This document shows, piece after piece, positions 35,386 through 60,515 of a DNA stretch of 64,000 nt (positions are counted from its first letter, which is position 1; every line of letters starts with the position of its first letter). The DNA comes from an uncultured Acidobacteriota bacterium (GTDB taxonomy: Bacteria; Acidobacteriota; Blastocatellia; RBC074). The stretch covers positions 160,001-224,000 of the forward strand of contig CAWCKY010000002.1 of the NCBI GenBank assembly GCA_963796275.1. The letters run 5' to 3'. Position numbers and translations under genes: made by a program. Below the pieces are notes generated by a model. It saw only the letters and a list, made by a program, of their open reading frames with translations, did not search any database and had not been told where the DNA came from.

Positions 35386-35386
35386 C

Positions 35387-35701: not shown

Positions 35702-36201
35702 TACCTCTCTCTATATATATTTCGGCCGAGATGATAAGCGCCCACCAGACCCGCCAGTAGCAGCATGGCAGCCAACTCCACACCCAACAGGTAAGGGCCA
35801 AAAAGCGCAACCCCCACCTGTCGCGGCTCTATACTGATGACTCCGGATTGTTGGCGACCTGCGCGAGTGATCATGTAGACCAGCTCCGCCATCAGAATGA
35901 TCGCCAGGATCGCCGGCCCAATCCACATTCGCGCTTTCAACCACTGACTTTCCCGCATGACGGCCTCATGACCCAGGTTGAGCAGCATGATCACGAATAC
36001 GAAGAGCACCATGATCGCTCCTGCATAGATGATCACCTCCAGGGCAGCGATGAATGGGGCGCCCAGGCGGAAGAAGATCAATGCCACCGAGAGTAACGAC
36101 ACGATCAAGTAAAGCAAGGCATGCACGGCATTCAGCCGGGTGATCACCATCACCGTCGAAACAATCGCCACTGCTGCTGCGATGAAAAATACTGCGTCCA
36201 T
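35701..36201 (-). CDS. nuoJ: NADH-quinone oxidoreductase subunit J
   Basis: [17 protein letters not shown] motif. Confidence 0.95.
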
Positions 36202-36231
36202 AGACTACAACTCTGTCTCGCCACTACTTGA

Positions 36232-36747
36232 TCACGGCATCAGACTGTGCACGTCTATAGGCGGCTCCTCATTCTTGGCCTCGCCTTTATCCTTCCCCCC
36301 AATTGCCAATCCGGCCACCCGGTAAAAGTTATAACCCGGATACTTGCCGGGGCCGTCGATCAGCAGATCCTCCTTCTCATAGACCAGGTTTTGCCGTTTG
36401 TATTCAGACATCTCGAAATCGGGAGTGAGCTGGATCGCATATGTGGGACACGCCTCCTCGCAAAAGCCGCAAAAGATGCAGCGCGAGAAGTTGATGCGAA
36501 AGAACTCCGGGTAACGCCGGCCATGCTCGTCCTCCGTCGCTTGCAAGGCGATGCAATCGACCGGACAGGCGACCGCGCACAAGTAGCAAGCAACACATCG
36601 CTCGCCTCCGTCAGGATCGCGCGAGAGGATGATACGCCCTCGCCACCTGGGCGGCAGATAAGGCTTCTCATCGGGATACTGAATTGTCTCCCGCCGTCGA
36701 AACATATGCAGAAATACCAACCACATGCTCTTCAGAATACTGATCAT
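36232..36747 (-). CDS. nuoI: NADH-quinone oxidoreductase subunit I
   Basis: Two CxxCxxCxxxCP ferredoxin motifs. Confidence 0.95.
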
Positions 36748-36762
36748 CGTTTTCTCCTTCTA

Positions 36763-37722
36763 TCAGGCCGCGAGCACAATCGCTCCGGTGACGACAATGT
36801 TGAGCAATGTCAGCGGAAGCATAACCTTCCAGCCGTAAGCCATCAGTTGATCATAACGCGGCCTGGGAAGCGCGGCCCGCAGCAAGATGAACCCGCAAAT
36901 AAAGACGAAGGTCTTGAGAAGAAACAAGACCACCGGCGGCAGCACCGGCCCCAGCCATCCGCCGAAGAACAGCGACACGATCATGGCAGAGATCAGCGTG
37001 ATGCCGAGATATTCCCCGACGAAGAACATGCCGAATTTCATGCCGGAATATTCGGAATGATAACCGGCCACCAGCTCGCTTTCGGCTTCCGGCAGATCGA
37101 AAGGCAGCCGATGCGTCTCTGCGATACCGGCAATGAGGAAAGTTACCAGACCGAGAAACTGGGGGATGCAGAACCACAGGCCCCGCTGCGCTTCCACGAT
37201 CTCGCGCAAGTTAAATGACCCGGCAAGCATGACCACCCCCATGAGCGACAGCCCCATGAACACTTCATAGCTCAACATTTGAGCTGAGGCTCGCAAGCCG
37301 CCCAGCAACGAGTATTTGTTCCCCGACGCCCATCCAGCCAGCACCACGCTATAGACACCCAACGACGACATCCCCAGGAAGAAGAGCAGGCCTATGTTCA
37401 GGTCCACCACCTGAATACCTGGGGCAAACGGGATGATGGAGAAGGACATCAACATCGTCACTACGATTACAGCCGGGGCGATAATGAACACCGGCTTGTC
37501 GGCGAAGGGCGGATTCCAATCCTCTTTGGCAAATATCTTGATCATATCGGCCAGCACCTGCAGCAAACCGAAAGGGCCGACGCGATTAGGGCCATAACGG
37601 TCTTGCCAGAGCGCCAGCAGCCGGCGCTCCAGCCAGATCAGCCCTGCGGCGATGGTGAGTATGGCGATCAGCACGCCGGCGATAGTCATGAGTGATCGGA
37701 TGATTTCATTCATCTCCCTCAT
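36763..37722 (-). CDS. nuoH: NADH-quinone oxidoreductase subunit H
   Basis: [11 protein letters not shown] and [24 protein letters not shown] motifs. Confidence 0.95.
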
Positions 37723-40430
37723 CCTCTCGATAGACTGCCCCAGGCAGGCAAAGCAATCTCCGTTAGCTCCCGCAAGTCGGCGGGCAACCCGGCGACCCCT
37801 CTCGGTAATGCCGGTTGGAGCTTTACGGGAAGGCGATGTACAGAGCCATCCAGCGCCAGCTCTATCTCTTCCCCATCATTTACCCGAAGACCGGACGCAT
37901 CATCGGGATTTAGCGCCAGGTAAGGCTGTGGAGATCGTTCAGCAATGCCAGGTGACAAGATGCTTAACTCCTCCGAACCGAAGATATGGTAGAGAGGCAC
38001 AATCAACCACTCGCTTTCGCGAGACTTAAAGGCTGCCGGTACATCGCGGAAGTAATATACTTCCGCACCCGACGCAGGCTCGATCATGCGCTGACCAGGA
38101 TCCCCGCCTAGCAGCGGGCCGCCCACTTCATCCTGGAACTTATTTAATGCCTGCACTGAGTTCCACCCCGGCGCCCAGTAATGCGTGATGAACGGCGGCG
38201 GCGGCTCGCCTTCATAACCTTCCATTGAGAAAGCGAGCGGAGAGTCGGGGTCATTTGGCGGTCGAGGCTCGTTAACATCGATCTGAACCAGCATAGCTGT
38301 GCGCCCGCTGTACCGGTGTGGTTGGCGGGGTATCTTTTGTCCCGCGATGCGAAATCCTGCGGGCGGTGCGACCTTCAAAATCGGCGAACAGATAGGAATC
38401 GCCGCGGCCAGGGCGGAAGCGACGTCATCGAGGTTATACCAGGCCGCACCCTCAGAGTGGTTAGTGGCGATCATCACATCGCGCAGCCAGCGCCAGCTCT
38501 CCTGGATCTCCCCATTCGGCACAAATACCTGATAGAAGCGCTGCGCGCGCCCTTCGCTGTTCACCAGCGTGCCATCGCCCTCGGCAAAGGTAGCCGCCGG
38601 GAGAATCACATCAGCTTTAGACGTGGTGGGATTGGATAAGTGATCGATCGCAATAATATGCCTGGCAGCATTCAGCATCGTATCCACTGACTTCGCATCC
38701 GCCCGCCGATAGAGATCATTCTCCAGAATAATCACGGTCTCTGCAGCCTTCTGCTCCATAATTTTGAAAGTATCGTTGAGGCTATTTCCGCCGATGAGAG
38801 CTACGCCCAGGCTATTGCATTCAGGCACAGTGAAACATAGTTCGGCAGTTCGGCCGTTTTCGCACAAAGCCCGCGCCACGTTAGCGGCCGCCAGCATCAC
38901 TTCTTCGGAGCCGCAACTTGTTCCGGAGATGATCAAAGGCCGCTTGGCCCCTTTGAGCGCCTGAGCGATCCTGCCGGCCAATGAATGCAACTCCTCCGGC
39001 AGGTCTCTGACCGGCGGAGCGCCACCATTCAGCGCATGAGCCACCGCAAAACCCAGACGGGCCAGATCATCGGGCGCTGCGCGGTACTTCTCAGCAGCGA
39101 TATCGTCAAGTCTTGTGCTGCAGGTCGTCGCGATGAAAAGCGGCCCCTTCTCACCCTGAATTGCCTCGCGTACAGCGGCATCGTCCCACTCGGGGATTTT
39201 CAGCCTCGCAGCAATCTCCAGAGGCTTGCGCAGCACCGATCGGCGCAGGGCGAGCGCCAACCTCGGCGCTACATTTGTGAGATCCTCTCCCAGCAGCAGA
39301 ACCGCGTCAGCGAGCTCCGCGTCGTGCAGCGACGGCGAGCGCGCGGGACCTATCCTTAAAATGTTCCGCGCTGTAGCAATCAGGCGAGAATCGCGCTCGG
39401 ACATTCCAAGACAGAAGTGCTCCGGCCCGACCAGAGTACGCAGCGCAAAATTGGCCTCCAGCGACGCGCGCGGAGATCCGATCCCGATCACTCTGGAACT
39501 CTCGGAAAGGAGCGGCTTCAAGTATTGAATGATGAAATCTTTTGCAGCCGGCTCTAACAAGCCGCTTCCCTGCTTCCGAAGCAATGGCTGGCGAATTCTC
39601 CGATCTCTGTTCACAAACTCATAGCCGTAACGCCCGCGATCGCACAGGAAGTACCCATTGACTTCACCGTTATACCGGTTGTAGACCCGCCGCAGCTCAC
39701 CGTAACGCTCGCCGGGAATTGTGTTGCAGCCCAGACCGCAGTGCACGCAGATGGACGGCGCAGTCTGCAAATCCCACTTGCGCGTGTAGTGTTGCTTCAA
39801 TGTTTTATCGGTGAAGACTCCCGTAGGACACACCTCAACCAGGTTGCCGCTGAACTCATTCTCCAGAATGCCATCCTCAAAGCGGCCGAAGTAGACGTGA
39901 TCGTGCGCAGCAAAGACGTCCAGATCGCGCCCCCCGGCGTAGTCGCGATAGAATCGAATACAACGATAGCATTCGATACAACGGTTCATCTCGTGGTTGA
40001 CGAACGGGCCGAGATACTGATTGCGAAATGTCCGCTTCCGGAAACGGAAGCGCCGGTAAGTATGTCCGGTCATTACCGTCATATCCTGAAGGTGGCACTC
40101 GCCACCCTCATCACAGACCGGGCAATCGTGCGGATGGTTGACCATGAGCCATTCGATCACGCTCGCACGAAATGATCTCGCTTCCGAATCGTCGATTGAG
40201 ATGCGCGTGTTGCTGGCGGCCGGGGTCATGCAAGCCATCATCAGCCTGCCATGCGTATCCTTCTCGTCCCTGAACTGTTTCACCGCGCACTGGCGGCAGG
40301 CGCCGACCGAACCCAAAGCCGGATGCCAACAGAAGTAGGGTAGATCGAAGCCTAACGAAAGGCAGCTGTGAAGCAGGTTCTGACCATCTTCGACGGTGTA
40401 AGGTTGGTTATCGATATAGATAATCGCCAT
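37719..40430 (-). CDS. nuoG: NADH-quinone oxidoreductase subunit G (long, E. coli type)
   Basis: FCWH...[20 protein letters not shown], and an extra CxxCxxxC (N7-type) cluster motif; 903 aa. Confidence 0.95.
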
Positions 40431-40433
40431 TCG

Positions 40434-41708
40434 CTATCTCCACGGACACCGACGCTCGTGAATGTGCCGCTCAAAATCATCTTTGAAATACTGCAGAGCG
40501 CTCTGCAACGGCTCCACCGCACCGGGAGCGAGCGCGCAAAAAGTAAGACCGGGCCCGAGAAATCTGGCATGCCAGGCCAGTCTCTCAAGGTCATCCGGCT
40601 GCCCCTGGCCATTCTCGATAGCCTGGAGAATTCGCGCTGTCCACGGCAGACCTTCGCGGCATGGCGTGCACCAGCCGCAAGACTCCTGGGCGAAGAAGTG
40701 TTCGAGGTTATGCACCAGACCGACCGGGCAGGTTTGATCGTCGAGTACGATCATTGTTCCGGTGCCCATCCGGCTGCCCGCTCTCTGCACCGAGGCATAA
40801 TCCATCCTCACATCCAGATGCTCCTCAACCAGGAAGTCGGTCGAAGCTCCACCCGGGATCACGCCACGGAATTTAAGACCATCGCGCATTCCGCCGGCAT
40901 GCTCTTCCAATATCTCCCGGATGGTAGTGCCCACCGGCAGCTCCCAGGCACCGGGCCGTTTGACCTTGCCGCTGACGCCATAGATTTTCGTCCCGCCTTC
41001 GCCGGTCAGGCTCAAGCCTTTGAACCATTCAGCTCCCTGGTTGATGATGTGGGGCACATTACAGAGGGTTTCGACGTTATTCACGATCGTCGGCTTGCCC
41101 CAGAGTCCGCTGACTTGCGGGTAGGGAGGTTTGGACCGCGGCGTAGCGCGTTTCCCTTCCAGGGCATTGAGCAGGCCCGTCTCTTCACCGCACATATAGC
41201 GGCCGGCGCTGATGTGGAGATGCAGCTCAAGGCTATAGCCAGACCCCACAATGTTTTTGCCCAGGTAGTTGCCCTCGTAAGCCTCGGCCAGTGCCTTTCG
41301 TAACCGTTTCGCCGCCAGCGTGTATTCCCCGCGCAAGAAGATATAAGCAACATCGGCCTGGATGGCATAGGAGCTGACGATCATGCCTTCGATCAGGTGG
41401 TGCGGATCGCCTTCGAGGAACAATCGGTCTTTGAATGTGCCCGGCTCCATCTCGTCAGCATTGGCAATTAGGTACTTGGGATGCGGAGCATCCGGGCCCA
41501 TTGGCACGAAGCTCCATTTTGTACCGGTCGGGAAACCGGCGCCGCCGCGACCCAGCAGATTGGATTGCTTAACCAGCTCCACCACTTCTTGTGGCCCCAT
41601 GCTTTGCAGAGATTTGCGCACCGCCTGATAGCCGCCTGCCTGTTCGTATTCTTTCAGATTCGGCGGCTCTCGATCGGGCCGGATGTTCCTGGTGAGCGGT
41701 CTTTCCAT
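40434..41708 (-). CDS. nuoF: NADH-quinone oxidoreductase subunit F
   Basis: GRGGAGFPTG, NADEMEPGTFKD, GRYMCGEET and ESCGWCTPCR motifs. Confidence 0.95.
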   Translation of the reverse strand: MERPLTRNIRPDREPPNLKEYEQAGGYQAVRKSLQSMGPQEVVELVKQSNLLGRGGAGFPTGTKWSFVPMGPDAPHPKYLIANADEMEPGTFKDRLFLEGDPHHLIEGMIVSSYAIQADVAYIFLRGEYTLAAKRLRKALAEAYEGNYLGKNIVGSGYSLELHLHISAGRYMCGEETGLLNALEGKRATPRSKPPYPQVSGLWGKPTIVNNVETLCNVPHIINQGAEWFKGLSLTGEGGTKIYGVSGKVKRPGAWELPVGTTIREILEEHAGGMRDGLKFRGVIPGGASTDFLVEEHLDVRMDYASVQRAGSRMGTGTMIVLDDQTCPVGLVHNLEHFFAQESCGWCTPCREGLPWTARILQAIENGQGQPDDLERLAWHARFLGPGLTFCALAPGAVEPLQSALQYFKDDFERHIHERRCPWR

Positions 41709-42187
41709 TAGATTTCTACCTTTGCTTCTATCGATTCGATGATCTGGCCGATCTTATGAATATCCAGATCCTGGTAAAGCTCGTCATCTATCATAAGTGC
41801 TGGGGCATGATCACAAGCTCCAAGGCATGGAATGGGTAACATCGTAAACTCCCCATCCGGACTGGTCTCGCCCAGCTTGATCCTCAGGCGGGCCGTCAGA
41901 TTCTCGCGGATCCGGTCGTACCCCATGATCCAGCAACTGACGCTATCGCAAATGAGGATTACATGCTTCCCGACGGGTTTGCGGAAGATCAAGTTGTAAA
42001 AAGTCGCGACGCTATCTAACTCATCAGGCGTCATCTCCAGAAACCCGGCCAGATCCCTGATGCCCTCATCGGAGACCCAGCCCCGGTGACGCTGGATAAT
42101 CTTCAGCGCATCAATGCACACGGCTCGCTTCTGAGCATAGTGTTGAAACTCAGCCTCGATCTCCCGTCTCTCCTCTTCAGTGAGCAT
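41708..42187 (-). CDS. nuoE: NADH-quinone oxidoreductase subunit E
   Basis: VATFY, CDSVSC and CLGACDHAP motifs. Confidence 0.95.
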   Translation of the reverse strand: MLTEEERREIEAEFQHYAQKRAVCIDALKIIQRHRGWVSDEGIRDLAGFLEMTPDELDSVATFYNLIFRKPVGKHVILICDSVSCWIMGYDRIRENLTARLRIKLGETSPDGEFTMLPIPCLGACDHAPALMIDDELYQDLDIHKIGQIIESIEAKVEI

Positions 42188-42215
42188 ATTTCTACCTATT
42201 TCTCTCCCTTACGCT

Positions 42216-43964
42216 TCAGCGATCCACATCGGCCAGAACAAAATCTATGCTGCCCAGGATCGCGAGCAGATCGGGCACCATCAGACCGCGACTGATCAGC
42301 GGAACCATTTGCATGTGCGGAAATGAAGGCGCGCGGATGCGGACGCGATAGGCCATCGTGCCGCCGTCGCTTATCAGGTAGTAACTGTTGGTACCCTTGG
42401 TCGCTTCAATTGTGACTTCGGCCTCGCCCGGCGGTATCACCGGCCCCCAACTGACGCTCAGGAAATGGGTGATGAGGGTCTCGATGTCATACATAGTGCG
42501 CTCTTTGAGCGGCGGAGTCGTTAAGGGATGGTCTGATTTGTACAGGCCGGACGGCAGATGATTCATGCATTGCTCGACGATTCTCAGGCTCTGGCGCATC
42601 TCTTCAACGCGCACGACGGACCGGTCATAGCAATCACCATGCTGGGCAGTGGGAATGTCGAACTCGAATTGATCGTAGCCGGAATAAGGCCGTCTCTTGC
42701 GGAAATCCCACTCTAGCCCACAGGCGCGCAAGCCAGGCCCTGTCACGCCCCATTCGATGGCCTCGTCCAGGCTGTAGGCTCCGATGCCTATGGTGCGCGC
42801 CCTGAAAATACGGTTCTGCATCACCAGTTTGTCATACTCTGCTAGCCTGCGATTCATGTAAGGGATGAAGTCTCGCACCAGCTTGTCCCATCCTTCAGGC
42901 AGGTCTTGCGCCACTCCCCCTATGCGGAACCAGCTCGGGTGCATGCGGCCGCCGCAAATAGCTTCGACAATGTCGAAGATCCGCTCGCGGTCGGTGAACA
43001 TATAAAACACCGGCGAGAGCGCTCCGACATCCTGAGCGAATGTGCCGTACCAGACCAGATGGCTGGCGAGTCGAAAGAATTCCGCCATCATGACGCGAAT
43101 CACCTTCACTCGGTCGGGCACCTCGATCCCAGCCAGTTTCTCGATCGATAAGACGTAGGCGAGGTTATTCATCACCCCGCCGAGGTAATCGACCCGATCG
43201 GTATAAGGAAGGTAGGTATGCCATGACTGCCGTTCGCCCATCTTTTCGGCTCCCCGGTGATGGAAGCCGATCTCCGGCACGGCATCGACGATCTGTTCGC
43301 CGTCGAGTTGCAGCACGATGCGCAGCACGCCATGGGTTCCGGGATGTTGTGGCCCCAGATTGAGGAACATGAAATCGGCATCTTCACTGCTTCGTTTCAG
43401 TCCCCATTCTTCTGGGTGGAATCGCAGCGCTTCTTGTTCAGCTTCCTGCTTCTCCTCGGATAGGCGGAAAGGCTCCATCTCAGTGGCGCGTGCGGGATGC
43501 TCTTTACGGAGAGGATGGCCTATCCATGTGGGTGGCATTAGGATCCTACGGAGATGAGGATGGCCGGTGAAGGTGATGCCGAACATGTCCCAGACCTCGC
43601 GCTCATACCAATTCGCCGCAGGCCAGAGGTCGGTAACCGTCGGCAACGAGGGGTACTCACCTGCGAGCGGTACTTTGAGCCGGATGTCCTGGTTCCGTTC
43701 GAAGGAGAGGAGATGGTAAACGACTGTAAAATCGCTCGGCGGTCGGCTTTCGCGATGGCCCCGGAATCGCTCGTCAATGGCTGTGAGGTCATAGAGCATG
43801 AGATAAGGTCTGACTGCCTCAGTTTTGAGGTACCGTAGTATTTCATGCGCTTTGTCCTGAGCCACCCACAAGGTAGGGATGTCATCGCGCGTGGATTGCG
43901 GCACGAAAGCTATATCAGCAAAGACTTGCCCCAATTCCTCGAAGATTGTCGATGAACTATTCAT
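42216..43964 (-). CDS. nuoCD: Fused NADH-quinone oxidoreductase subunit C/D
   Basis: [11 protein letters not shown] (C) and [14 protein letters not shown] (D) occur in one ORF ending DVDR. Confidence 0.95.
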
Positions 43965-44599
43965 ACCTCATTGGGGGAGCGTAAAATTGTGATCTGCTGC
44001 CTCTCTGCACGTTTCATATCCTTCATAGAGGGAGGCGTTGGTCGCACCACGCCCTGCGGGCCAATCACCCAACTGAGCGGACGTTGTTCTTTCCCCACTG
44101 CCTGTTGAAGCAGTGTTAAGCCTTCCATAAAAGTGCTTGGGCTCGGCGGACAACCCGGCACGTAGAGGTCTACTGGAAGAAACTTATCCACACCCTGAAC
44201 AACGCTGTAGATATCATACATCCCGCCGGAATTGGCGCATGACCCCATGGATATCACCCAGCGCGGTTCCATCATCTGCTCATGAAGTCGTTTGATGATC
44301 GGCGCCATCTTTATGAACACGGTGCCGGCAATTACCATCAGGTCGGCTTCGCGCGGCGTACCGCGAATCACCTCAGCTCCAAAACGCGCGATGTCGTACT
44401 TGCTCGTGATGCTCGTTGCCATCTCGACAAAACAGCACGAGAGGCCAAAATTAAACGGCCAGATGGAGTTCTTTCGCCCCCACGCCAGAAGGTCTTGCAA
44501 CCGTGCGAGCATGAGGTTGCGCCGCACTGCGCTCTCGAAAGAACCGTCACCATCGGCAGATGGTAGGGGGGCAGTCGTTTTACTCAACTTCCATTGCAT
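43961..44599 (-). CDS. nuoB: NADH-quinone oxidoreductase subunit B
   Basis: [19 protein letters not shown] and VPGCPP motifs. Confidence 0.95.
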
Positions 44600-44673
44600 A
44601 CTTTTGAATGTCACAGGGGGGTGCGAGAGGGATATGTCTCATCTCGCACCTTTGGACTTCGATCAATCCCCGC

Positions 44674-45066
44674 CTATGTTCTCCTCCTCCTACTTCCCCA
44701 GTCGAGCGCGCCTATCCGCCATTCGTAAATCAGGGCGGCGACCAGCACGCCGATGAAAATCAAGGCTCCCACGTAACCTGTCCAGCCCAGTTCGCGGAAA
44801 GCTACCGCCCAAGCGAAGATGAATACAGCTTCCAGATCGAAGATCAGAAAGAGAATCGCGATCAAATAAAATTTGGCAGAAAACCGTAGCCGGGCGGAAC
44901 CGGTTGAGACGATCCCCGACTCATAAGGCTCGCCCGTCGCTCTCTCCCGATGACGCTGACCCAGAAGGTATGACAGCGCCAGCATCCCGGCGACCATCAC
45001 AATCACAGCCACGAAGTAGACCGCGAGAGGCCAAAGAGTAATAGTCTCTGTTGCGGGAGAGTTCAA
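44674..45066 (-). CDS. nuoA: NADH-quinone oxidoreductase subunit A
   Basis: PYESG and FYLIAILFLIFDLEA motifs; TTG start. Confidence 0.92.
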   Translation of the reverse strand: MNSPATETITLWPLAVYFVAVIVMVAGMLALSYLLGQRHRERATGEPYESGIVSTGSARLRFSAKFYLIAILFLIFDLEAVFIFAWAVAFRELGWTGYVGALIFIGVLVAALIYEWRIGALDWGSRRRRT

Positions 45067-45204
45067 ATTAATACCCTCTTGATCAGGTCATCGGTTTTGC
45101 CGGAGCGGGCTATCAAATGGGAGGATGAATAGTGAACGCACGATCAAATAACGTGTAATTCAGATAACCACAGGAGATTGCACAAGCTATTTACCGTACG
45201 ATTA

Positions 45205-45259
45205 ACTCTAACAGGAAAGAGCTAAGGAAGTCATAAATGAGCCATCAAGATTCCATAAG
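45205..45259 (-). promoter_or_regulatory. nuo promoter with 11-bp-periodic OmpR/KdpE-type boxes and extended -10
   Basis: Minus strand reads cttatggaatc-ttgatggctca-tttatgacttc, then 16 nt ending TGt, then TAGAGT. Confidence 0.7.
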
Positions 45260-45312
45260 GGAGCTGGAAAAGACTGTTAGCACGGAAGTTGAATGAAGAA
45301 ACTAATAGACTT

Positions 45313-45378
45313 TTTACGCTGCCTTTATGGAATCTTGATGGTTTATTTATGACTTCCTTAACCTGTCACTGATAAAGT
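45313..45378 (+). promoter_or_regulatory. Kinase/regulator promoter with the same boxes
   Basis: tttacgctgcc-tttatggaatc-ttgatggttta-tttatgacttc, then 16 nt ending TGa, then TAAAGT. Confidence 0.7.
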
Positions 45379-45526
45379 TAAGCGTTATCATAAATCTTAC
45401 TTGAGCACCGGCTAATTGACCTGTCGAGAGCTACGCTGACAGACTGTTAAAAGAGCGACGTAAAACTATAATCAGACAAACATTCATCAAGTTCATCAAT
45501 CAGTTATCTCTTCTATCTCTTCGCTT

Positions 45527-46603
45527 ATGTTACAAGTGATGCGATCTAAGCTGTTGCGCTATGGTGTTGCGGTACTGCTCGTAACGCTCGCGTTGCTATT
45601 GGCGGTGCTGGTTAGATCGTGGCTTGAGCAGAGCGTTTTCCTTCTATTTTTTGGGGCAGTAATGATGAGCGCCTGGTATGGCGGACTGGGGCCAGGGTTG
45701 CTGGCTACACTTCTGTCCGTGGGCATGATCGAATCCTACCTGCTTTCTCCAGCCCGGGGCCAGGCCATTCCGCGGTTGATCATCTTTGTGTTCATGGCTG
45801 TCCTGGTAAGCTCGCTCAATGAGGCGCGCAAACGGTCCGAAGAGAGGCAGCGCTCCCTGACCGAAGCTCTCAAACAAAGTAACGAACTGAAAAGCGCATT
45901 GCTTGCCTCCGTCTCTCACGACTTGCGAACGCCGCTCACTTCTATTCGCGCAGCGATTGACAGCCTGATGAATGAGGAATTCAACTGGGATAAGGCCACG
46001 CTTCGGGAACTCCATCTGATCATCAGCGAAGAAATTCATCGGTTGACGAAGCTGGTCGAGAATCTGTTGGAGATGGCCCGGATCGAATCGGGCGAGTTGC
46101 ACTTCTCACCGCAATGGGGATCGGTTGTTGAGATTTGCGACAATGCACTTGAGCAATGCGCCGTCGAGCTTCGCCATCACATGGTGCATGTGGATTGCCC
46201 CGAGAATCTTCCCGGAGTTAAAGTTGATTCGCGGCTGATAGCGGAAGCGCTGACCCACGTGGTCGAGAACGCTGCCAGATATTCGCCGCGTGGCAGCGAG
46301 ATACTCGTGCGCGGAAGACTCGACGGCAATCAACTGTTGATAAGCGTCGCGGATCAAGGACCAGGATTTGCGCCGGAAGACATAGATCGCATCTTTGATA
46401 ATTTGTACCGCAGCTCGCATCCGAACATTCATAGCAGCCACGGCACAGGCATGGGGCTTGCCATCGCGCGCGGGATGATCGAGGTACACGGCGGTAAAAT
46501 CCGGGTTGAGAGCGAGTCCGGTCGGGGGGCTACTTTCATCTTCGAGTTGCCGGTCGAGTATAGCGGGACGTCAGAATCCAAAGTTGCAAAGGAGACGCTG
46601 TAA
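45527..46603 (+). CDS. Short KdpD-like sensor histidine kinase (DUF4118-HisKA-HATPase)
   Basis: About 4 TM helices, SVSHDLRTPLTSI, NAARYSP and GTGMGLAI. It lacks the KdpD N-terminal, Usp and GAF domains. Confidence 0.9.
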   Translation: MLQVMRSKLLRYGVAVLLVTLALLLAVLVRSWLEQSVFLLFFGAVMMSAWYGGLGPGLLATLLSVGMIESYLLSPARGQAIPRLIIFVFMAVLVSSLNEARKRSEERQRSLTEALKQSNELKSALLASVSHDLRTPLTSIRAAIDSLMNEEFNWDKATLRELHLIISEEIHRLTKLVENLLEMARIESGELHFSPQWGSVVEICDNALEQCAVELRHHMVHVDCPENLPGVKVDSRLIAEALTHVVENAARYSPRGSEILVRGRLDGNQLLISVADQGPGFAPEDIDRIFDNLYRSSHPNIHSSHGTGMGLAIARGMIEVHGGKIRVESESGRGATFIFELPVEYSGTSESKVAKETL

Positions 46604-47292
46604 TGAAGAATCCGGTCATCCTCATAGTAGACGATGAATTACAAATCCTGCGCGTAATGCGGGCGAGCCTTCCAGCGCGCGGTTATGAAGTGCGGACGGC
46701 GCCCGGCGGCGAGGAGGCTCTCGACGAAATTAGCAAGGAAATGCCTGATCTGATCATTCTCGATCTGGTCATGCCCGGGATGTCGGGGCTGGAAGTTTGT
46801 CGTCGAGTACGCGAATTCTCTTCAGTACCGATCATCGTCCTTTCAGCGAAAGAGGCGGAAAGCGACAAAGTGGCGGCGCTCGAAATGGGCGCTGACGATT
46901 ACGTGACCAAGCCTTTTGGCTTAGATGAATTGTTCGCGCGCATGCACGCGGTACTCCGGCGCATCTCCGCTGCCGAAGCTCATTCTTCGGTGCTCACCGC
47001 TGGCGACTTGACGATTGAGACTGACGAGCGGCGGGTGACGGTAGCCGGGCGGGAAGTGAAATTGACGCCAAAAGAGTTCGAGGTGCTCAAGTACCTGGTG
47101 AGCAACGCCGGCAAGGTGGTCACCCATCGTGCGCTGCTGCAAGCTGTCTGGGGCTCCGAAGCCACGGAACAGACCGATTACCTGCGCGTCTTCGTCAACC
47201 AGCTGCGCGGTAAAATCGAGCCTGTTCCGCGACACCCCCAGTACATCTTAACTGAACCGTGGGTCGGTTATCGTTTTACCCCCAATGGATAA
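46603..47292 (+). CDS. kdpE: KdpE-like OmpR-family response regulator
   Basis: VDDE, DLIILDL, GADDYVTKPF, GKVVTHR.LL..VWG, YLRVFVNQLR.KIE and ILTEPWVGYRF motifs. Confidence 0.85.
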   Translation: MKNPVILIVDDELQILRVMRASLPARGYEVRTAPGGEEALDEISKEMPDLIILDLVMPGMSGLEVCRRVREFSSVPIIVLSAKEAESDKVAALEMGADDYVTKPFGLDELFARMHAVLRRISAAEAHSSVLTAGDLTIETDERRVTVAGREVKLTPKEFEVLKYLVSNAGKVVTHRALLQAVWGSEATEQTDYLRVFVNQLRGKIEPVPRHPQYILTEPWVGYRFTPNG

Positions 47293-47302
47293 AGATATGT
47301 AG

Positions 47303-47340
47303 TAAAGAAGTCATAAACAAACCATGAAAAACCTATTAAG
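47303..47340 (-). promoter_or_regulatory. Orphan copy of the 11-bp boxes facing the 3' end of the regulator
   Basis: Minus strand reads ttaataggttt-ttcatggtttg-tttatgacttc-ttta, with no good -10 at the 16-nt distance. Confidence 0.55.
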
Positions 47341-47934
47341 GCACTAGATATTATCCCTGAATACATTCATCGATGCCTCCTGGTGCGGCCGAATATCTAC
47401 TCACTGCTGGACGATTCCTGGGATGGACGAATGGGAAGTCATTAGCGTCGTTGAAATGAATAGGAAGAGGAGCAGGTGGTTGATGCGGGCGCCTCATAAC
47501 AGGGTAGACACATTACCATTATCAACTCGTCCTCCTCCAGTAATACTTGTTGGCCAGTGGGTGTATAGAATAGGTAAGGATGGCGTGCCTGTGAACACCC
47601 GGATAGAACGGATAGCATCGGCGTTTACACTCGCCTTTTGCAGCGCGCGATTTCAACACGGTTGCTGACTACAATACTCACGCTGAGGTTGAACGACAGA
47701 GAGCTTACCGGCTTCGGTCTCTAGACATTCCCCGGACTTTTTGCGCCGCATCGAGTTGCGCTGATGAGAGCAAATTCGCCGAGCAAAATCCGAACGTTAG
47801 ATATTTACGACTAAAGGATTCCTTCACTTGGGCCACACATCTTGATCTATTATATAAAACATACTCTCCTTCCCATGGATTTCGCGTGCTTCGCGTTCTC
47901 GTACTTTCTACTTCAGTCCCGCGCTAACAACCTC

Positions 47935-48000
47935 TTTACGGTTTCCTGATGATCTCTTAACGGCTTGTTTATGACTTCTTTATCTCTTTCCTGCTAGATT
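47935..48000 (+). promoter_or_regulatory. act-cox promoter with the same boxes
   Basis: tttacggtttc-ctgatgatctc-ttaacggcttg-tttatgacttc, then 16 nt ending TGc, then TAGATT. Confidence 0.72.
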
Positions 48001-48087
48001 CGAATTTCCAATGAACATCACCAGCTCCTTCGAGATATTAAAGAAGCTCGAACGCCGTGGACAGACAGAAGTGAAAGAGGCGGTGAT

Positions 48088-48747
48088 ATGCCTCAGATTT
48101 TTCATCGCAGCACCAATACGATTTCGAGGGTGAGTATTTTCGGCAGCGTATTCATTTTGTCTTTTCTGATCTGGACGCTTTACCAATTGCAAAGCTCATC
48201 CTACAACACGCGTGCATTTGTCGCACGCGAGCAGCCAGTGCAGTTCAGTCATAAGCATCACGCGGGCGATGACGGAATAGACTGTCGGTATTGCCATACG
48301 ACAGTCGAGACCTCCGCTTTCGCCGGAATTCCACCGGTCAAGACTTGCATGAACTGCCACTCGCAGCTATTCGCCGACAGTGACTATCTGGCGCTGGTGC
48401 GCGATAGCTTCAAAAGCGGCAAGCCTATCAGGTGGACGCGCGTCCACGATCTTCCCGACTTTGCCTACTTCAACCACAGCATTCACGTCAACAAAGGCAT
48501 AGGCTGCTCGACCTGTCACGGGCGCGTGGACCAGATGCCGCTGACGTGGCAAGTGGCTTCGCTTCAGATGGAGTGGTGTCTTCAGTGCCATCGCAACCCC
48601 GCGGCATATGTCAGGCCTCGCGATCAGGTCTTCAATATGGAATGGCAATCGCCGCGCAATCAAATCGAAGAAGGAAAGAGGCTGGTCGAGCAGTACCACA
48701 TACAAAGTCCGAATGTGATTACGAATTGTTCAACCTGCCATCGCTGA
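48088..48747 (+). CDS. actA: Alternative complex III pentaheme cytochrome c subunit
   Basis: MPQIF N-terminal TM, QPVQFSHKHH and five CxxCH motifs. Confidence 0.92.
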   Translation: MPQIFHRSTNTISRVSIFGSVFILSFLIWTLYQLQSSSYNTRAFVAREQPVQFSHKHHAGDDGIDCRYCHTTVETSAFAGIPPVKTCMNCHSQLFADSDYLALVRDSFKSGKPIRWTRVHDLPDFAYFNHSIHVNKGIGCSTCHGRVDQMPLTWQVASLQMEWCLQCHRNPAAYVRPRDQVFNMEWQSPRNQIEEGKRLVEQYHIQSPNVITNCSTCHR

Positions 48748-48763
48748 CAGTGAGGGCAAGCCG

Positions 48764-51700
48764 ATGTCTACAAAACACAATCAGCTCGATCTCGCTGCGA
48801 TTCGCGAGCGGCTCGGCACCGCGCGAGGAAAAGAATACTGGCGCAGCTTAGAAGAGTTGGCGGATATCGAGGAGTTCAGAGAGTTGCTGCACCGCGAATT
48901 TCCGCGACAGGCGTCGGAATGGCAGGATGGGGTTGGCCGCCGCAGATTTTTACAGTTGATGAGCGCATCGCTAGCTCTGGCCGGACTCACGGCCTGTACG
49001 CGCCAGCCGACCGAGCAGATAGTGCCTTACGTACATCCTCCGGAAGCAATCGTGCCCGGCAGACCACTCTTTTTCGCCACGGCAATGCCTATGGGCGGAA
49101 TTGCCGAAGGATTGCTCGTCGAAAGTCACGAAGGAAGGCCAACCAAAATAGAAGGCAATCCCGATCATCCGTCGAGTCTGGGCGCTACGAGCGTCTTCGC
49201 TCAAGCATCGGTGCTGACGCTTTACGATCCCGATCGTGCGCAAACAATAACCTATCTCGGCGACATTCGCCCGTGGGGCGCATTCCTGGGTGAAGTGCAG
49301 TCTGCGCTGGAGACGCAACGTGCGGGTAATCAAACGGGGGGCGCAGGGCTGCGCATTCTGACTGAAACCATCTCGTCGCCAACACTTGCCAATCAGATCA
49401 AAACTCTGTTCACTGAATTTCCTGCCGCGAAGTGGATTCAATACGAGCCGGTCAATCGGGACAACGCTCGAACTGGTGCAGCAATGGTGTTCGGGGAAGA
49501 CGTCAATCCGATCTATCACTTCGACATGGCCAATGTGATTCTCTCGCTCGACGCCGATTTTCTCTCCTGTGGGCCCGGCAATCTGCGTTACGTGCGCGAG
49601 TTTGTGGCGAAGAGAAGAGTGGAGGAGGGGCGCAGCGAGATGAGTCGGCTCTATGTGGTCGAAAGCACGCTCACCAATACCGGGGCAGCGGCTGATCATC
49701 GCCTGCCACTCGTCCCAGGTGATATTGAAAACTTCGCGCGCGCTGTCACAGTGGGGCTTGGCGTTCGGGGAGTCGGGGCAGAGATGATGCCCTCTTACTC
49801 GAAATGGGTTGCGGCGCTCGCGCGCGATCTCGGTCGACATCGTGGCCGCAGCCTGGTCATTGCCGGCGACAGTCAACCGCCCATCGTTCATGCACTGGCG
49901 CACATGATGAATCACGCGCTGGGCAATATTGGTAATACCGTCATCTTCACTTCTCCCGTCGAGGCTGAATCAATTGATCAGACCACACGCCTACGCGAGC
50001 TGGTGCAGGAAATGGAAGACGGTCAGATCGATACGCTCGTTATCGTTGGGGGCAATCCCGTTTATAACGCGCCCGCCGACCTGAAATTCGCCGAGCGCAT
50101 GAACAAAGTCCGGCTGCGAATCCATCTGGGTCTCTATCACGACGAGACCTCGGACCTCTGTCACTGGCATATTCCCGAAGCGCATTACCTGGAATCCTGG
50201 AGCGATGCGCGCGCTTTCGACGGCACAGTCAGCATCATCCAGCCGCTGATCGCGCCGCTTTATCAAGGCAAATCAGCGCACGAACTGCTCGAGGCTTTCA
50301 GCAATCAGCCGGAAAAATCGGGCTACGAGATCGTCCGCGATTACTGGGAGAGCCAACACCGAGCAGGCGATTTCGATCAGTTCTGGCGCGCGGCGCTTCG
50401 CCATGGGTTTATTGAAAATTCCGCGCTGCCACCTAAGCCGGTGACCTTGAAGTCGCCGGAATCGCAATTGCAGGCGGGCAGTAAGCCTGCGCCCCCGGGT
50501 TTGGAGATTATCTTCCGACCTGATCCATACATTCACGACGGACGCTTTGCAAATAACGGATGGCTGCAGGAACTGCCGAGGCCGATCACCAAACTGACAT
50601 GGGACAATGCGGCGCTCATCAGCCCCGCGACCGCGCAGCGTCTCGGTCTGACCTATGAAATCAGCTCGCGCGGAGGGGAGCACGGCCAGGTCTTCGCCGA
50701 TGTAGTTGAGATGCAATACGAGGGACGCTCGGTGCGCATGCCAATCTGGATTATGCCCGGCCACGCCGATGATTGCGTGACTGTGTATCTGGGCTTTGGC
50801 CGCACGCGAGCTGGGAACACGGGTACGGGCGCGGGATTCAATGCTTATGCAATTCGCACGTCCGATGCGCCATGGTTCGACTCCGGCCTCAATCTGCGCA
50901 AAACGGGCGAACAGTACGCATTAGCCACGACACAGTTACATCATAATATGGAAGGGCGTGAATTGGTGCGCTCAGCAACAATTGATGAATATCGCAAGGA
51001 TCCGTACTTCGCGCACGGGAAAGAGCCGGCGCCTTCGAAAGACCACACACTGTATCAGAACTTCGCGTATCCGGGCTATGCCTGGGGGATGACGATCGAT
51101 TTGAATGCCTGTGTTGGATGCAACGCCTGCGTGGCGGCCTGCCAGGCCGAAAACAACATTCCCATCGTCGGCAAGACCGAGGTGATGCACGGGCGAGAGA
51201 TGCACTGGCTGCGCATTGACCGTTACCACCAGGGCAGTCCCGAAAATCCGCGAACCTTCTTTCAGCCGGTTCCCTGCATGCATTGTGAAAATGCCCCGTG
51301 TGAAGAAGTGTGCCCCGTCGGCGCGACGCTGCACAGTTCAGAAGGCTTGAACGACATGGTCTATAACCGGTGCGTCGGCACGCGATACTGCTCGAATAAC
51401 TGCCCGTACAAAGTGCGCCGCTTCAACTTTCTGCTCTTCCAGGATTGGAACACACCAAGTTTGAAACTGCTACGCAACCCCGATGTCTCTGTGCGCAGCC
51501 GCGGTGTGATGGAGAAATGCACCTACTGCGTACAGCGTATCAATGCTGCCAGGATTCAGGCGGAGAAGGAGGAACGCCCCATCCGCGACGGCGAGATCGT
51601 CACGGCCTGTCAGGGTGCGTGCCCGGCTGAAGCCATCACTTTCGGCGATATCAACGATAAGAACAGTCGCGTCGCGAAGCTCAAAGGAGAGCCGCGCAAT

Positions 51701-51790
51701 TACGAGCTGCTCGCCGAACTCAATACGAGGCCGCGCACGACTTATCTCGCTTCGGTGCGCAATCCGAACCCTGAGCTCGAGGAGATTTGA
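48764..51790 (+). CDS. actB: Alternative complex III ActB (molybdopterin-oxidoreductase-like plus Fe-S domain, Tat-variant signal)
   Basis: [14 protein letters not shown]...[17 protein letters not shown] and a C-terminal DmsB-like Cys cluster domain. Confidence 0.92.
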
Positions 51791-51795
51791 ACTGG

Positions 51796-53227
<1,432 letters not shown>

Positions 53228-53722
53228 TGGCCGAGTTCGACAATCCGACCTCTCTGGTAGCCGCGACCAGCCGCGCATACAGCGAAGGCTATCGGCAGAT
53301 GGACGCCTACAGTCCGTTTCCGATTGAAGAGCTTTCTGAAGCGCTGGGATTTCGTTGGTCAGGCGTCCCGCTGATCGTGCTCATTGGCGGTCTGGTCGGA
53401 TGCCTGGGTGGATATTTACTGCAGTATTACATCGCGGCGATCTACTGGCCGGTCAATGTCGGTGGGCGCCCGTTCAATAGCTGGCCTATGTTCATCCCGG
53501 TGACATTCGAGCTGACGGTATTGTGCGCGGCGCTCTTCGGATTCTTCGGGATGCTGGCGCTCAACGGTCTGCCGAAGCCGCACCATCCGGTCTTCAACGC
53601 GCCGCGCTTCGAGTTCGCGTCGCGCGACCGATTCTTTCTTTGCATTGAAGCCACCGATCCGAAGTTTGATCAGGCGGCGACACGAGGCTTTCTGGAGAGC
53701 CTGGGTGCGCGTGAGGTGAGTG

Positions 53723-54499
53723 ATGTCGCGAGCTGAAAAATCAAATATCGAAAACCGAAAGTCGAGGGTCAAAAGTGCAGGATTCTATTGCGAGCATTTT
53801 ATTTCACCCCGAACCGGCGTCATCGAAGCGACAAAAAATATCGGAAGCAGCAGGCGATCATTTTTGCTATTCGCCTTTTGCCTTTTGCCTTTCGCCTTTC
53901 TACTCGCTGGCTGCCGTCAGGATATGCACGATCAGCCAAAGTATACGCCGCTCAGACCCAGCACGTTTTTTGAGGATGGCAAGTCAGCACGTCCCCTAGT
54001 CGATGGTACAGTGCCGCGCCGCAACTTGAGAGAAGACCCATCCCAATCCGACGGCGATTCGAATGGAGGACGGTCACTTCGGATCGATTTAGCTTCTGGG
54101 CCTCAACAAACACAGCAACCGGATATTTCAAAAGCTATTACTCCCCCGATTCAGGTCACGCAGGATGTGCTGGATCGCGGGGAGGAACGATTCAACATTT
54201 CTTGCACCCCGTGTCACGGGCGAGTGGGCGACGGCAACGGGATGATTACGCAGCGCGGTTTCCGCCGCCCGCCGTCGTATCACATTGACCGATTGCGTGG
54301 CGCTCCCATTGGTCATTTCTTCGACGTGATGACGAACGGCTTCGGCGCAATGCCGAGCTACGCCGATCAGGTTGCACCGCAAGACCGCTGGGCCATCGCG
54401 GCTTACATTCGCGTCCTGCAACTGAGCCGCAATGCAACGCTCGCCGACGTGCCCCCTGGAGAGCGCAGCCGATTGAATGCAAGAGGGCAGGCGCGATGA
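53723..54499 (+). CDS. actE: Alternative complex III monoheme cytochrome c lipoprotein
   Basis: Lipobox LLAGC, RQDMHDQPK, CTPCH, MPSYA.Q and DRWAI..YIR.LQ motifs. Confidence 0.9.
   Translation: MSRAEKSNIENRKSRVKSAGFYCEHFISPRTGVIEATKNIGSSRRSFLLFAFCLLPFAFLLAGCRQDMHDQPKYTPLRPSTFFEDGKSARPLVDGTVPRRNLREDPSQSDGDSNGGRSLRIDLASGPQQTQQPDISKAITPPIQVTQDVLDRGEERFNISCTPCHGRVGDGNGMITQRGFRRPPSYHIDRLRGAPIGHFFDVMTNGFGAMPSYADQVAPQDRWAIAAYIRVLQLSRNATLADVPPGERSRLNARGQAR
53737..53903. repeat. Heptamer tandem repeats inside the actE N-terminus
   Basis: aaaatca-aatatcg-aaaaccg-aaagtcg (53737-64) and ttttgct-attcgcc-ttttgcc-ttttgcc-tttcgcc (53862-96). Confidence 0.7.
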
Positions 54500-55677
54500 C
54501 CGAGATTACCACTTACGCGGCGCCGGCGGAGCTTGGCCGTTTTCAACGAAACGCGCTGATCGTCGGCATCATCGGCATCATGCTGTGCGTAGCTGGATGG
54601 CTCATAAACCCGGAACAGTTCTTTCAGTCTTACCTGATCGGCTATCTGTTCTGGATGGGCATTGCGCTTGGCTGTCTGGCCATCATGATGCTGCAGCACC
54701 TGACTGGCGGCGAGTGGGGGTTGGTGATTCAACGCCTGCTTGAATCGGCGACGCGCACACTGCCACTGATGGCAGTGTTGTTCGTGCCGCTTGCGCTCGG
54801 CATGAGCTATCTCTATGCGTGGTCGCGTTCGACCTCCGCTGAAGAGGCCGGAAATCATCAGGATACCTGGCTCAGCGTTCCGTTCTTTCTGATGCGTGCA
54901 GGCTTGTACTTTGCGATCTGGCTTGTCATGGCCTACTTCCTCAATCGCTGGTCGCACGAGCAGGATCGCGATGGGGACCCGCAATTGAAACGGCGCTTGC
55001 AGGTGTTGAGTGGTCCTGGGCTTGTGATTTATGGATTGACGGCGACGTTTGCCGCGACCGACTGGCTGATGTCGCTCGTGCCCGAATGGTATTCAACGAT
55101 CTTTGGGCTGCTCGTCATCGGCGGCCAAGTGCTTTCGGCGATGGCGTTCGCGGTGGCCGTTGCTGTTGTATTGGCTGAGCGCGAGCCGATGAATCATGTT
55201 TTTGCGACGAAGCATTTTCACGACCTCGGCAAGCTGCTGCTGGCTTTTGTCATGATCTGGGCATATCTCGCCTTTTCGCAACTATTGATCATCTGGGCGG
55301 GCAACCTCCCGGAAGAGATTCCGTTTTATCTGCCGCGCATGCAGACGAGCTGGCGCTGGATCGGAGCGCTGCTGGTCGTTTTTCAGTTTGCGCTGCCGTT
55401 TCTACTGTTGCTTTCGCGCGAACTGAAACGTCACGCGCGGCGATTGATCGCAGTCGCGGCACTCGTCATCGTGATGCGTTTCATTGATCTCCTCTGGCTC
55501 GTGGCACCGGAGTTTCGTCGTCAGGGATTCAAGTTTCACTGGCTCGACATTGTCGCGGTGATCGCGCTCGGAGGGGTATGGCTGGCGTTTTATTTGTGGC
55601 AACTGCGGAGATGGCCGCTCATGCCCCTGCACGATCCGCGATTGGAGGCAGCTTTGGCGCATGATGCGCGGCATTAA
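54496..55677 (+). CDS. actF: Alternative complex III ActF membrane subunit
   Basis: DWLMSL.PEWYSTIFG, HDLGKLL.AF and FSQLLIIWAGNLPEE motifs; about 10 TM helices. Confidence 0.88.
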   Translation: MTEITTYAAPAELGRFQRNALIVGIIGIMLCVAGWLINPEQFFQSYLIGYLFWMGIALGCLAIMMLQHLTGGEWGLVIQRLLESATRTLPLMAVLFVPLALGMSYLYAWSRSTSAEEAGNHQDTWLSVPFFLMRAGLYFAIWLVMAYFLNRWSHEQDRDGDPQLKRRLQVLSGPGLVIYGLTATFAATDWLMSLVPEWYSTIFGLLVIGGQVLSAMAFAVAVAVVLAEREPMNHVFATKHFHDLGKLLLAFVMIWAYLAFSQLLIIWAGNLPEEIPFYLPRMQTSWRWIGALLVVFQFALPFLLLLSRELKRHARRLIAVAALVIVMRFIDLLWLVAPEFRRQGFKFHWLDIVAVIALGGVWLAFYLWQLRRWPLMPLHDPRLEAALAHDARH

Positions 55678-55696
55678 GATTTCAGGGGAGGTTGCA

Positions 55697-56143
55697 ATGA
55701 CGGATCAAGTCGAACAATCGGATGTCGCGCACGAAGCGAGTGATGTGAGCGTTCCGACCATCGTCAAATTCGGCCTTGCGCTGATCGTCGCAATTGGATT
55801 GGTGTGTCTACTGGTCTGGGGATTGTTCGCAGTCTTCTATGCGCGCGCCGTGAAGACCGAACCGACGCCGCCACCGCTCTATCGTGGTGAGCGGCTGCCG
55901 CCTGAGCCGCGACTGCAGGGCATGCCGGGACATCAGAGCATTCCGTCAGAAGACATCAAAGAGTTTCGCAAGAGAGAAAACATCGAACTCAATTCATATG
56001 GCTGGGTCATCAAGCCGTCCGGGCAACAAGCTGGGATTATTCACATCCCGATCGAGCGGGCAAAGAAGTTGATCCTCGAGAGAGGGCTGCCTGCCCCAAC
56101 CGCTAGCTCTGGGCAAAACAGGCCGCCGGAGAAGAAGCAATAA
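55697..56143 (+). CDS. Single-TM ACIII-associated protein (ActG-like)
   Basis: HE.SD, PPEPRLQ, LNSYGW and HIPIERA motifs; located after actF. Confidence 0.7.
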   Translation: MTDQVEQSDVAHEASDVSVPTIVKFGLALIVAIGLVCLLVWGLFAVFYARAVKTEPTPPPLYRGERLPPEPRLQGMPGHQSIPSEDIKEFRKRENIELNSYGWVIKPSGQQAGIIHIPIERAKKLILERGLPAPTASSGQNRPPEKKQ

Positions 56144-56235
56144 CGAGGTGGATCGTGAAGATAGAAAACAGAGCGGAAGGCTATCAACAATATGCGTCAT
56201 GCAGAAAGCGAATTGTCATAAAGGAGGAGCGTAAG

Positions 56236-58143: not shown

Positions 58144-58155
58144 ATGGAGGGAGAA

Positions 58156-59817: not shown

Positions 59818-59828
59818 GGAGAGCAATA

Positions 59829-60491: not shown

Positions 60492-60515
60492 TCTACGAAA
60501 CGAAAGGATTGAGTT

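Follow-up and report, generated by a model that had tools for sequence, protein, structure and literature searches.

What controls the respiratory genes that lie on either side of a small two-component system in an uncultured soil acidobacterium of the class Blastocatellia, and does it activate or repress them? The window analysed here, a stretch of 64,000 nucleotides (nt), corresponds to C2:160001-224000 of a 9.46-megabase (Mb) assembly of seven contigs (genome G000). It holds an operon for a complex I (nuo) and an operon for alternative complex III and cytochrome c oxidase (act), with genes for a KdpD-type sensor kinase and a KdpE-like response regulator in between. A sequence-only reading of this DNA had proposed that an 11-mer recurring in four phased arrays around these genes marks the operators of the adjacent regulator. 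Our analysis supports this proposal through the KdpE-type half-sites of the arrays, the conservation of a promoter module across genera and the co-occurrence of module and regulator. We think it probable that the arrays are operators of a KdpE-derived regulator, which would activate nuo, its own operon and the alternative complex III-oxidase operon from a site that replaces the -35 element.

An invariant 11-mer in phased arrays

The 11-mer TTTATGACTTC is present without mismatch at 45227-45237 (-), 45346-45356 (+), 47307-47317 (-) and 47968-47978 (+), the four positions originally claimed. The genome has eight exact copies on its two strands, four of them within 2.8 kilobases (kb) here. With at most one mismatch the window contains five matches, against a mean of 0.67 in 100 dinucleotide-preserving shuffles of it, none of which (0/100) reached five. 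Each copy had been described as part of an array of TTtAtG-like units repeating every 11 base pairs (bp), and the spacing counts bear this out. When three TTTAYG hexamers at a fixed spacing were scored (maximum 18), 13 window positions reached at least 14/18 at 11 bp, all inside the four arrays, against one each at 10 and 12 bp. Genome-wide, 19 positions score at least 16/18 at 11 bp, compared with 3, 2, 1 and 4 at spacings of 9, 10, 12 and 13 bp; 17 of the 19 fall at four places (the window, the kdp locus on contig C6, a regulator locus on C1 and a near-duplicate array at C2:724572), and the other two are low-scoring outliers at C1:1101669 and C3:1378187. A scan of G000 for the box (at most one mismatch) with phased flanking hexamers passed 5 of 164 matches, four of which are the window copies; eight shuffled-motif controls gave 0, 0, 0, 0, 1, 0, 0 and 2.

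Read in register, the window arrays comprise five to six units each (U-4 to U+1), and not a pair, which adds to the earlier description. The unit consensus is TTnATGnCTyn, and the best-conserved unit of each array is U0, the invariant TTTATGACTTC. The hexamers TTTATG, TTTACG and TTGATG at the 11-bp period match the KdpE-type half-site (TTTAYA type, 6 bp plus a 5-bp spacer), and the repeats are direct, not inverted, with a period of about one helical turn, as in operators of the OmpR/PhoB family.

Two other occurrences of the box were seen. The fifth match of the G000 scan, at C1:542548 (locus L090, 4537-4570), reads TTTACGTAATT then TTTATGACTTA and lies about 200 nt ahead of VitK2_biosynth, a menaquinone biosynthesis gene of the futalosine pathway; it is without a proper TAnnnT at the module distance and is a candidate box site only. 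In the relative G019, locus L099 (G019:C32:14498-14544) has two exact 11-mers 36 nt apart inside a short open reading frame (ORF) of MTSDG(F/Y) repeats. This pair is a coding repeat and not an operator, and the bare 11-mer arises in other ways too.

Three arrays belong to putative promoter modules

The same reading held that in three copies a TAnAnT hexamer (TAGAGT, TAAAGT and TAGATT) starts exactly 16 nt after the box and is preceded by TGn, as can be read directly in the sequence. With these hexamers the three arrays make up promoter modules of about 95 bp that run from U-4 to U+1, then nCTGn, then TAnAnT:

45198..45281, minus strand: nuo promoter module with units, -10 and predicted start; the same CCTGT-TAGAGT stands at nuoA of G286, a relative from another family
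45271-45281, 45260-45270, 45249-45259 and 45238-45248, minus strand: units U-4, U-3, U-2 and U-1 of the nuo module
45227-45237 and 45216-45226, minus strand: proximal units U0 (TTTATGACTTC) and U+1 of the nuo module
45211-45215 and 45205-45210, minus strand: core of the nuo module, CCTGT and -10 TAGAGT (TGT before it), predicted start about 45198
45302..45385, plus strand: promoter module of the kinase/regulator operon, an inverted repeat of the nuo module
45302-45345, 45346-45356 and 45357-45367, plus strand: units U-4 to U-1, U0 and U+1 of the kinase module
45368-45372 and 45373-45378, plus strand: core of the kinase module, ACTGA and -10 TAAAGT (TGA before it), predicted start about 45385
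47923..48018, plus strand: promoter module of act (alternative complex III-cytochrome c oxidase), identical at 82 of 96 positions to the act promoter of G006, a relative from another genus
47924-47967, 47968-47978 and 47979-47989, plus strand: units U-4 to U-1, U0 and U+1 of the act module
47990-47994 and 47995-48000, plus strand: core of the act module, CCTGC and -10 TAGATT (TGC before it), predicted start about 48007

In each, 10 bp separate the last unit's hexamer from the TG-extended -10, and there is no good -35 (the best candidates are ATGACT or TGACTT). A scan for sigma-70 promoters gave two sites against 2.7 expected. One of the two, CTGTCA-17-TATCAT at 45363-45391, is an alternative promoter for the kinase; we rejected it as the main one, since the other modules do not conserve it. 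A different promoter type was also considered and rejected. A sigma-54 promoter, which has GG at -24 and GC at -12 (TGGCAC-N5-TTGC), was suggested by the CTGC before TA; by eye, none of 14 modules (the window's and those of relatives, see below) has a GG where this promoter type would need it.

The nuo and kinase copies were said to form a 36-bp inverted repeat with 34 identical positions, and the nuo and act copies to share CTCTTTCCTG[T/C]TAGA; reading the sequence confirmed both. The inverted repeat extends to 64-nt arms at 81% identity in a repeat search and to about 190 nt at 74% by blastn, and the resulting nuo/kinase intergenic palindrome spans 45198-45385 of the window, with 74% identity over 197 aligned columns. 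So long a palindrome raises the question of whether the copies have a regulatory role at all, or are remnants of a local inverted duplication, of a mobile element, or of a palindrome that forms a hairpin (RNA or cruciform). Rfam, run over 44900-48300, returned a plant microRNA hairpin as its sole match, at 28.6 bits against a gathering score of 70, a spurious hit that stems from the palindrome. Transcription is predicted to begin at the outer ends of the palindrome, which would thus not be transcribed. By blastn neither the nuo/kinase nor the act intergenic region is repeated elsewhere in the genome, which led us to reject a mobile-element origin. The internal 11-bp periodicity, and the conservation of the module across genera ahead of orthologous genes when the flanking DNA is not conserved, also argue against copies without function, which we regard as very improbable.

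Conservation of the module and co-occurrence with the regulator

In G006, where the regulator is 82% identical to that of the window, the act promoter is the part that aligns with 47923-48018, and the remaining intergenic DNA is unalignable. G006 has three further modules with the same CTGC-TAnAnT, four in total. Two of the G006 modules recur in G166, a member of the same genus, which has another ahead of a gene for an NAD-binding oxidoreductase. In G286 the regulator is 79% identical to that of the window. The individual modules are:

G006: ahead of a co-directional cluster for RND efflux, GH15, MgtC, two kinases and the regulator
G006: ahead of a cupredoxin/COX2-like protein and cytochrome c
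G006: ahead of a HAMP kinase with a sigma-54-dependent regulator
G286: CCTGT-TAGAGT as in the window, ahead of the orthologous nuoA (76-78% identical)
G286: divergent module ahead of DUF4142, cupredoxin, a DUF4118-PAS-PAS kinase and the regulator
G286: third module, after nuoN, ahead of hemerythrin and a receiver protein

A module thus precedes the operon that contains the regulator in G006, G166 and G286, which supports the autoregulation suggested earlier. The targets in relatives are largely electron-transfer proteins: the cupredoxin/COX2-like protein with cytochrome c, a second cupredoxin, hemerythrin and the NAD-binding oxidoreductase.

An anchored alignment of 14 modules from five genomes keeps U-2, U-1, U0, U+1, CTG and TAnAnT, with the consensus yTGATGnnCTC, TTnATGnCTnG, TTTAtGACTTC, CTTAnnnCnnT, nCTGn, TAnAnT. 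The end of U0 lies 16 nt from TAnAnT in 14 of 14 modules; nine of these were found with patterns that demanded this distance, so that for them only the other conserved columns are independent evidence. When 301 genomes sampled from the class were scanned with a strict version of the module (at most one mismatch), there were 16 matches in eight genomes, and the backward pattern used as a control gave three, in three other genomes. With the regulator type called present at an expectation value (E) <= 1e-95, the module occurs in 8 of the 31 genomes that have the regulator type and in 0 of the 270 that do not, an association overstated by the relatedness of the genomes, which are not independent. 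At the loci of the five closest regulators, the exact box was not found near the regulator itself; the modules of these genomes are sited elsewhere.

A regulator of KdpE descent and a shortened KdpD-type kinase

The two-component genes of the window are:

46603..47292, plus strand: response regulator of 229 amino acids (aa), receiver and Trans_reg_C by Pfam, KdpE lineage
45527..46603, plus strand: sensor kinase of 358 aa, DUF4118 joined directly to HisKA and HATPase_c (Pfam)
28970..30443, plus strand: second KdpD-type kinase, DUF4118-PAS-HisKA-HATPase_c (Pfam), in two overlapping frames and convergent with nuoN

The regulator, which adjoins the arrays, is of the OmpR/PhoB type, with a receiver and a winged-helix Trans_reg_C domain (Pfam). 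Of the solved structures, that of E. coli KdpE (4KNY, E 8.4e-57) matches it best, ahead of RegX3, RpaA, MtrA and PhoP. The ungapped alignment with 4KNY retains the counterparts of R193, R200 and T215, residues that KdpE requires for DNA binding (PMC3264566). Among NCBIfam models KdpE scores best, at 221.5 bits against an equivalog cut-off of 325; PhoB scores 191.1 and ArcA 125.7. In a maximum likelihood tree of 22 regulators, six that have no kdp genes in the flanks retrieved (from the window, G006, G166, G019, G001 and G286) form a clade with support 97/96. This clade nests in one of support 95/96 together with four regulators that lie inside kdpFABC operons (G023, G025, L009 and L011), and the more distant acidobacterial regulators in the tree are mostly kdp-linked as well. 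We read the window regulator as descending from the KdpE of a kdp operon, that is, as derived from KdpE and not a plain ortholog of it. The direction of change, from kdp-linked to unlinked, we infer from a tree with a midpoint root and one long outgroup branch.

The kinase is 58% identical over residues 110-344 to residues 649-883 of a relative's 904-aa KdpD, and its residues 36-109 align to 430-512. Counterparts of KdpD residues 1-429 and 513-648, the N-terminal, Usp and linker parts, are absent, and Pfam detects neither the N-terminal KdpD sensor domain (PF02702) nor Usp. The second kinase, at 28970-30443, corresponds to the first of the pair of tandem kinases next to the G006 regulator, with 49% identity in its N-terminal part and 64% in its C-terminal part. 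Two kinase genes that are adjacent in G006 thus seem to have been separated here by an insertion of the nuo operon. The kinase of the G286 operon carries two PAS domains (DUF4118-PAS-PAS).

Related arrays at kdp loci

No kdp gene lies in the flanks of any of the six regulators of the derived clade (6/6). The only kdpA found in the genome is on another contig, C6, with a paralogous regulator 5.6 kb away, and no TTTATGACTTC-type module was found at this locus. Six further arrays of G000 have three to six perfect TTTAYG units with an 11-bp period, each ending 5 nt before a TAnnnT:

C6:2716015-2716026, C6:2716572-2716583 and C6:2722684-2722695: arrays on C6 with perfect TTTAYG units
C2:724572-724583, C1:250827-250838 and C1:244600-244632: other arrays with perfect TTTAYG units

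They are sited at the kdp locus, ahead of paralogous kinase-regulator pairs, and as the near-duplicate on C2; that at C1:244600 consists of six near-identical TTTATGCCCCG units. The arrangement of last unit, 5 nt and TAnnnT is found at the C6 and C2:724572 arrays (TAGCAT, TAGCTT and TAGTCT) and also at kdp-type arrays of G006, G002 and G003. Among the kdp-linked sisters of the regulator clade, the kdp promoter of G025 has the GACTTC-type units TTTATAACTTC, TTTATGGGCCC and CCTATGACTTC, then 16 nt and TAAGGT, and the GACTTC-type array at the L011 kdp promoter ends in TTTAAGACTTC, followed by 15 nt and TAAAGT. Since these two sisters have units of this type at nearly the same distance to TAnnnT, the box is, on this comparison, ancestral.

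The kdpA of G000 itself (C6:2713185-2714952; locus L007, 1133-2953) matches its Pfam model in three separate frames. Two other genes of the assembly are split as well, so that either indel errors or a decaying kdp operon are indicated.

Proposed activation and its competitors

In the mechanism that we propose, the regulator would be phosphorylated by the shortened KdpD-type kinase, and perhaps also by the PAS-bearing one at 28970-30443; regulator dimers would occupy the array and recruit RNA polymerase, the bound protein standing in for the -35 element in a class II layout of the PhoB type. Phosphorylated regulator would then turn on the second complex I, its own operon, by positive feedback, and alternative complex III with cytochrome c oxidase, all together. 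Candidate signals are potassium or membrane energisation, or else redox state or oxygen. PhoB-type regulators replace the -35, and their classical geometry of activation has the proximal hexamer 10 bp from the -10. We read the modules as activator-dependent because the same layout is found at kdp-type promoters and kdp must be induced by KdpE. In E. coli, KdpE is known to induce the kdp operon (PMC3264566).

Part of the evidence weighs against this reading, and some of it would favour other explanations. The same regulator could act on the same arrays as a repressor, by blocking constitutive TG-extended -10 promoters with an array that extends over -80 to -20, and the second respiratory chain would then be shut off on signal. 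U0 and U+1 do cover the -35 and spacer region, promoters with a TG-extended -10 can dispense with a -35, and at icdA ArcA is reportedly an OmpR-family repressor that works through several direct repeats. The kdp-type layout, necessarily that of KdpE-induced promoters, and the position of the promoter-proximal hexamer speak for activation instead, and negative autoregulation combined with repression of three operons is the less usual design. Repression therefore seems unlikely to us.

The arrays might also be bound mainly by another protein: an unrelated factor, or else the KdpE-like paralog on C6, that on C1 or both, in which case nuo and act would answer to potassium in the classical way. G000 has two further KdpE-like regulators, one near kdpA on C6 and one on C1, each 57% identical to the window regulator. 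The three paralogs share the recognition helix YLRVF-x-x-LR except at one position (N versus G), and the arrays of the other two use the same TTTAYG unit at the same distance to TAnnnT. Since the helices are near-identical, the assignment of the modules to the adjacent regulator rests on adjacency, orthology and co-occurrence. G006 (89% complete), however, has a single KdpE-like regulator among the matches listed, yet four modules; all eight module-bearing genomes have the regulator type of the window; and the ACTTC tail of U0 is specific to the arrays linked to this type. We consider a different main binder improbable.

Activation by the adjacent regulator has further points to contend with. 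Because the nuo and kinase modules are inverted duplicates of one another, they cannot be counted as two separate observations of the geometry. The link between module and nuo was seen in two genomes only (G000 and G286); upstream of nuoA in G006, an ortholog with 77% identity, there is no module. Nor did the class-wide scan find a strict module in G019, although this genome encodes a regulator of the clade. At the kdp-linked loci of G023 and L009 no array was recognised in the readable upstream DNA. Finally, a frameshift at about 52430 divides actC (NrfD family, 51787-53227), within the presumed act target, into overlapping frames of 229 aa and 280 aa; the G006 ortholog is one 476-aa protein, and contigs of relatives in two soil metagenomes have one letter fewer at 52430. 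The frameshift is either an assembly indel or real, and in the latter case the act target of this genome is damaged.

The fourth copy

47296..47339, minus strand: fourth copy, with U-2 at 47329-47339, U-1 at 47318-47328, U0 at 47307-47317 and U+1 at 47296-47306

This copy has ATCCAT in the place of the -10 and no TG. It lies 15 nt past the stop codon of the regulator gene and points back into it, so that the would-be -10 overlaps the last codons. No counterpart was found behind the G006 regulator gene. It is most likely a decayed copy of the module or an accessory binding site, and not a promoter; looping with the act module 650 bp away, or a role as a roadblock, is possible.

On a soil-metagenome contig (run X3) from a relative about 90% identical, the 617 letters of 47294-47910 are replaced by 117 other letters; the contig keeps the kinase, the regulator and the act module and resumes at 47911. 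The stretch 47294-47910, which contains the fourth box and an 81-aa ORF, resembles an insertion or fast-evolving DNA specific to this genome. The ORF (47423-47668) is probably no gene: it matches nothing in Pfam or NCBIfam and lies in the stretch that the X3 relative replaces.

The operons presumed to be controlled

30462..45066, minus strand: nuoA-N with fused nuoCD (Pfam), a second complex I, presumed target of the nuo module
48088..60809, plus strand: actA-F, a SCO1-COX2-cytochrome c fusion, COX1, COX3 and COX4 (Pfam, NCBIfam), presumed target of the act module

Another nuoB (50% identity) and another actA (64% identity) are encoded elsewhere in the genome, and because of these the island is, by its predicted genes, an extra and complete aerobic chain with the two-component system in its middle.

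Discussion

The closest known system is E. coli KdpD/KdpE. KdpE, a winged-helix regulator of the OmpR/PhoB family, is the best solved relative of the window regulator, and the window kinase retains the DUF4118 membrane domain and the catalytic core of KdpD. It has lost, by comparison, the N-terminal, Usp and linker domains; the presumed targets are nuo, the alternative complex III-oxidase genes and the operon's own genes, not kdpFABC; and kdp in this genome lies at a different locus, which has a paralogous regulator of its own. The operators are alike in their T-rich direct hexamers every 11 bp (TTTATG here). The E. coli half-sites are the hexamers TTTATA/TTTACA with a 5-bp spacer, in a single pair at -72 to -50 (PMC3264566), unlike the five to six units here, which reach to 10 bp before the -10. 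The system is not a strict member of KdpD/KdpE, because the sensor domains are absent from the kinase, no kdp gene is linked and the position of the operator differs from that in E. coli.

In geometry the modules resemble the pho box of PhoB, in which direct repeats with an 11-bp period substitute for the -35 and stop about 10 bp short of the -10; strong promoters have several such boxes side by side, and PhoB is autoregulated. The unit sequence differs, the regulator scores higher as KdpE than as PhoB, and there are no phosphate genes. The element would thus act like a class II operator of the PhoB/OmpR kind, with units and regulator that appear to be of KdpE descent. In its proposed role, the coordination of several respiratory complexes by a two-component system, it is comparable to ArcB/ArcA and RegB/RegA-PrrB/PrrA, and ArcA is also said to bind arrays of direct repeats. 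The regulator is not orthologous to ArcA, as the NCBIfam scores show, and its kinases, unlike those of the Arc and Reg/Prr systems, have a KdpD-type membrane domain, with or without PAS. A full-text literature search, with subscription journals outside it, found no paper on control of nuo, alternative complex III or cytochrome oxidase by KdpE or KdpE-like proteins, nor any on KdpDE regulation in Acidobacteria.

The mechanism is an ordinary one; what is new is the wiring and the visible growth of a regulon through the copying of a promoter module. It may be, with the chances about evenly balanced, that a KdpE subfamily in Blastocatellia left the kdp operon, lost the sensor domains of KdpD (in some cases gaining PAS), retained the box and turned into a master switch for an accessory aerobic chain, acquiring new targets as the module of about 95 bp was copied. 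The chain so controlled would comprise complex I, alternative complex III and cytochrome c oxidase as well as cupredoxins and cytochromes c. The locus would then be an example of regulatory rewiring, in which a potassium regulator holds on to its DNA box, takes on a different sensor and different targets, and spreads as a promoter module is duplicated.

The locus offers a testable regulon, with one regulator, one module of sharp consensus and targets that include a second complex I and an alternative complex III-oxidase operon; it can be tested with recombinant protein and without cultivation, and regulon members in metagenome-assembled genomes can be annotated from the module consensus. Acidobacteria are among the most abundant soil bacteria, and the control of their branched respiratory chains is almost unstudied. 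If the membrane domain of the kinases still reports potassium or membrane energisation, potassium status would be coupled directly to respiratory capacity in these organisms.

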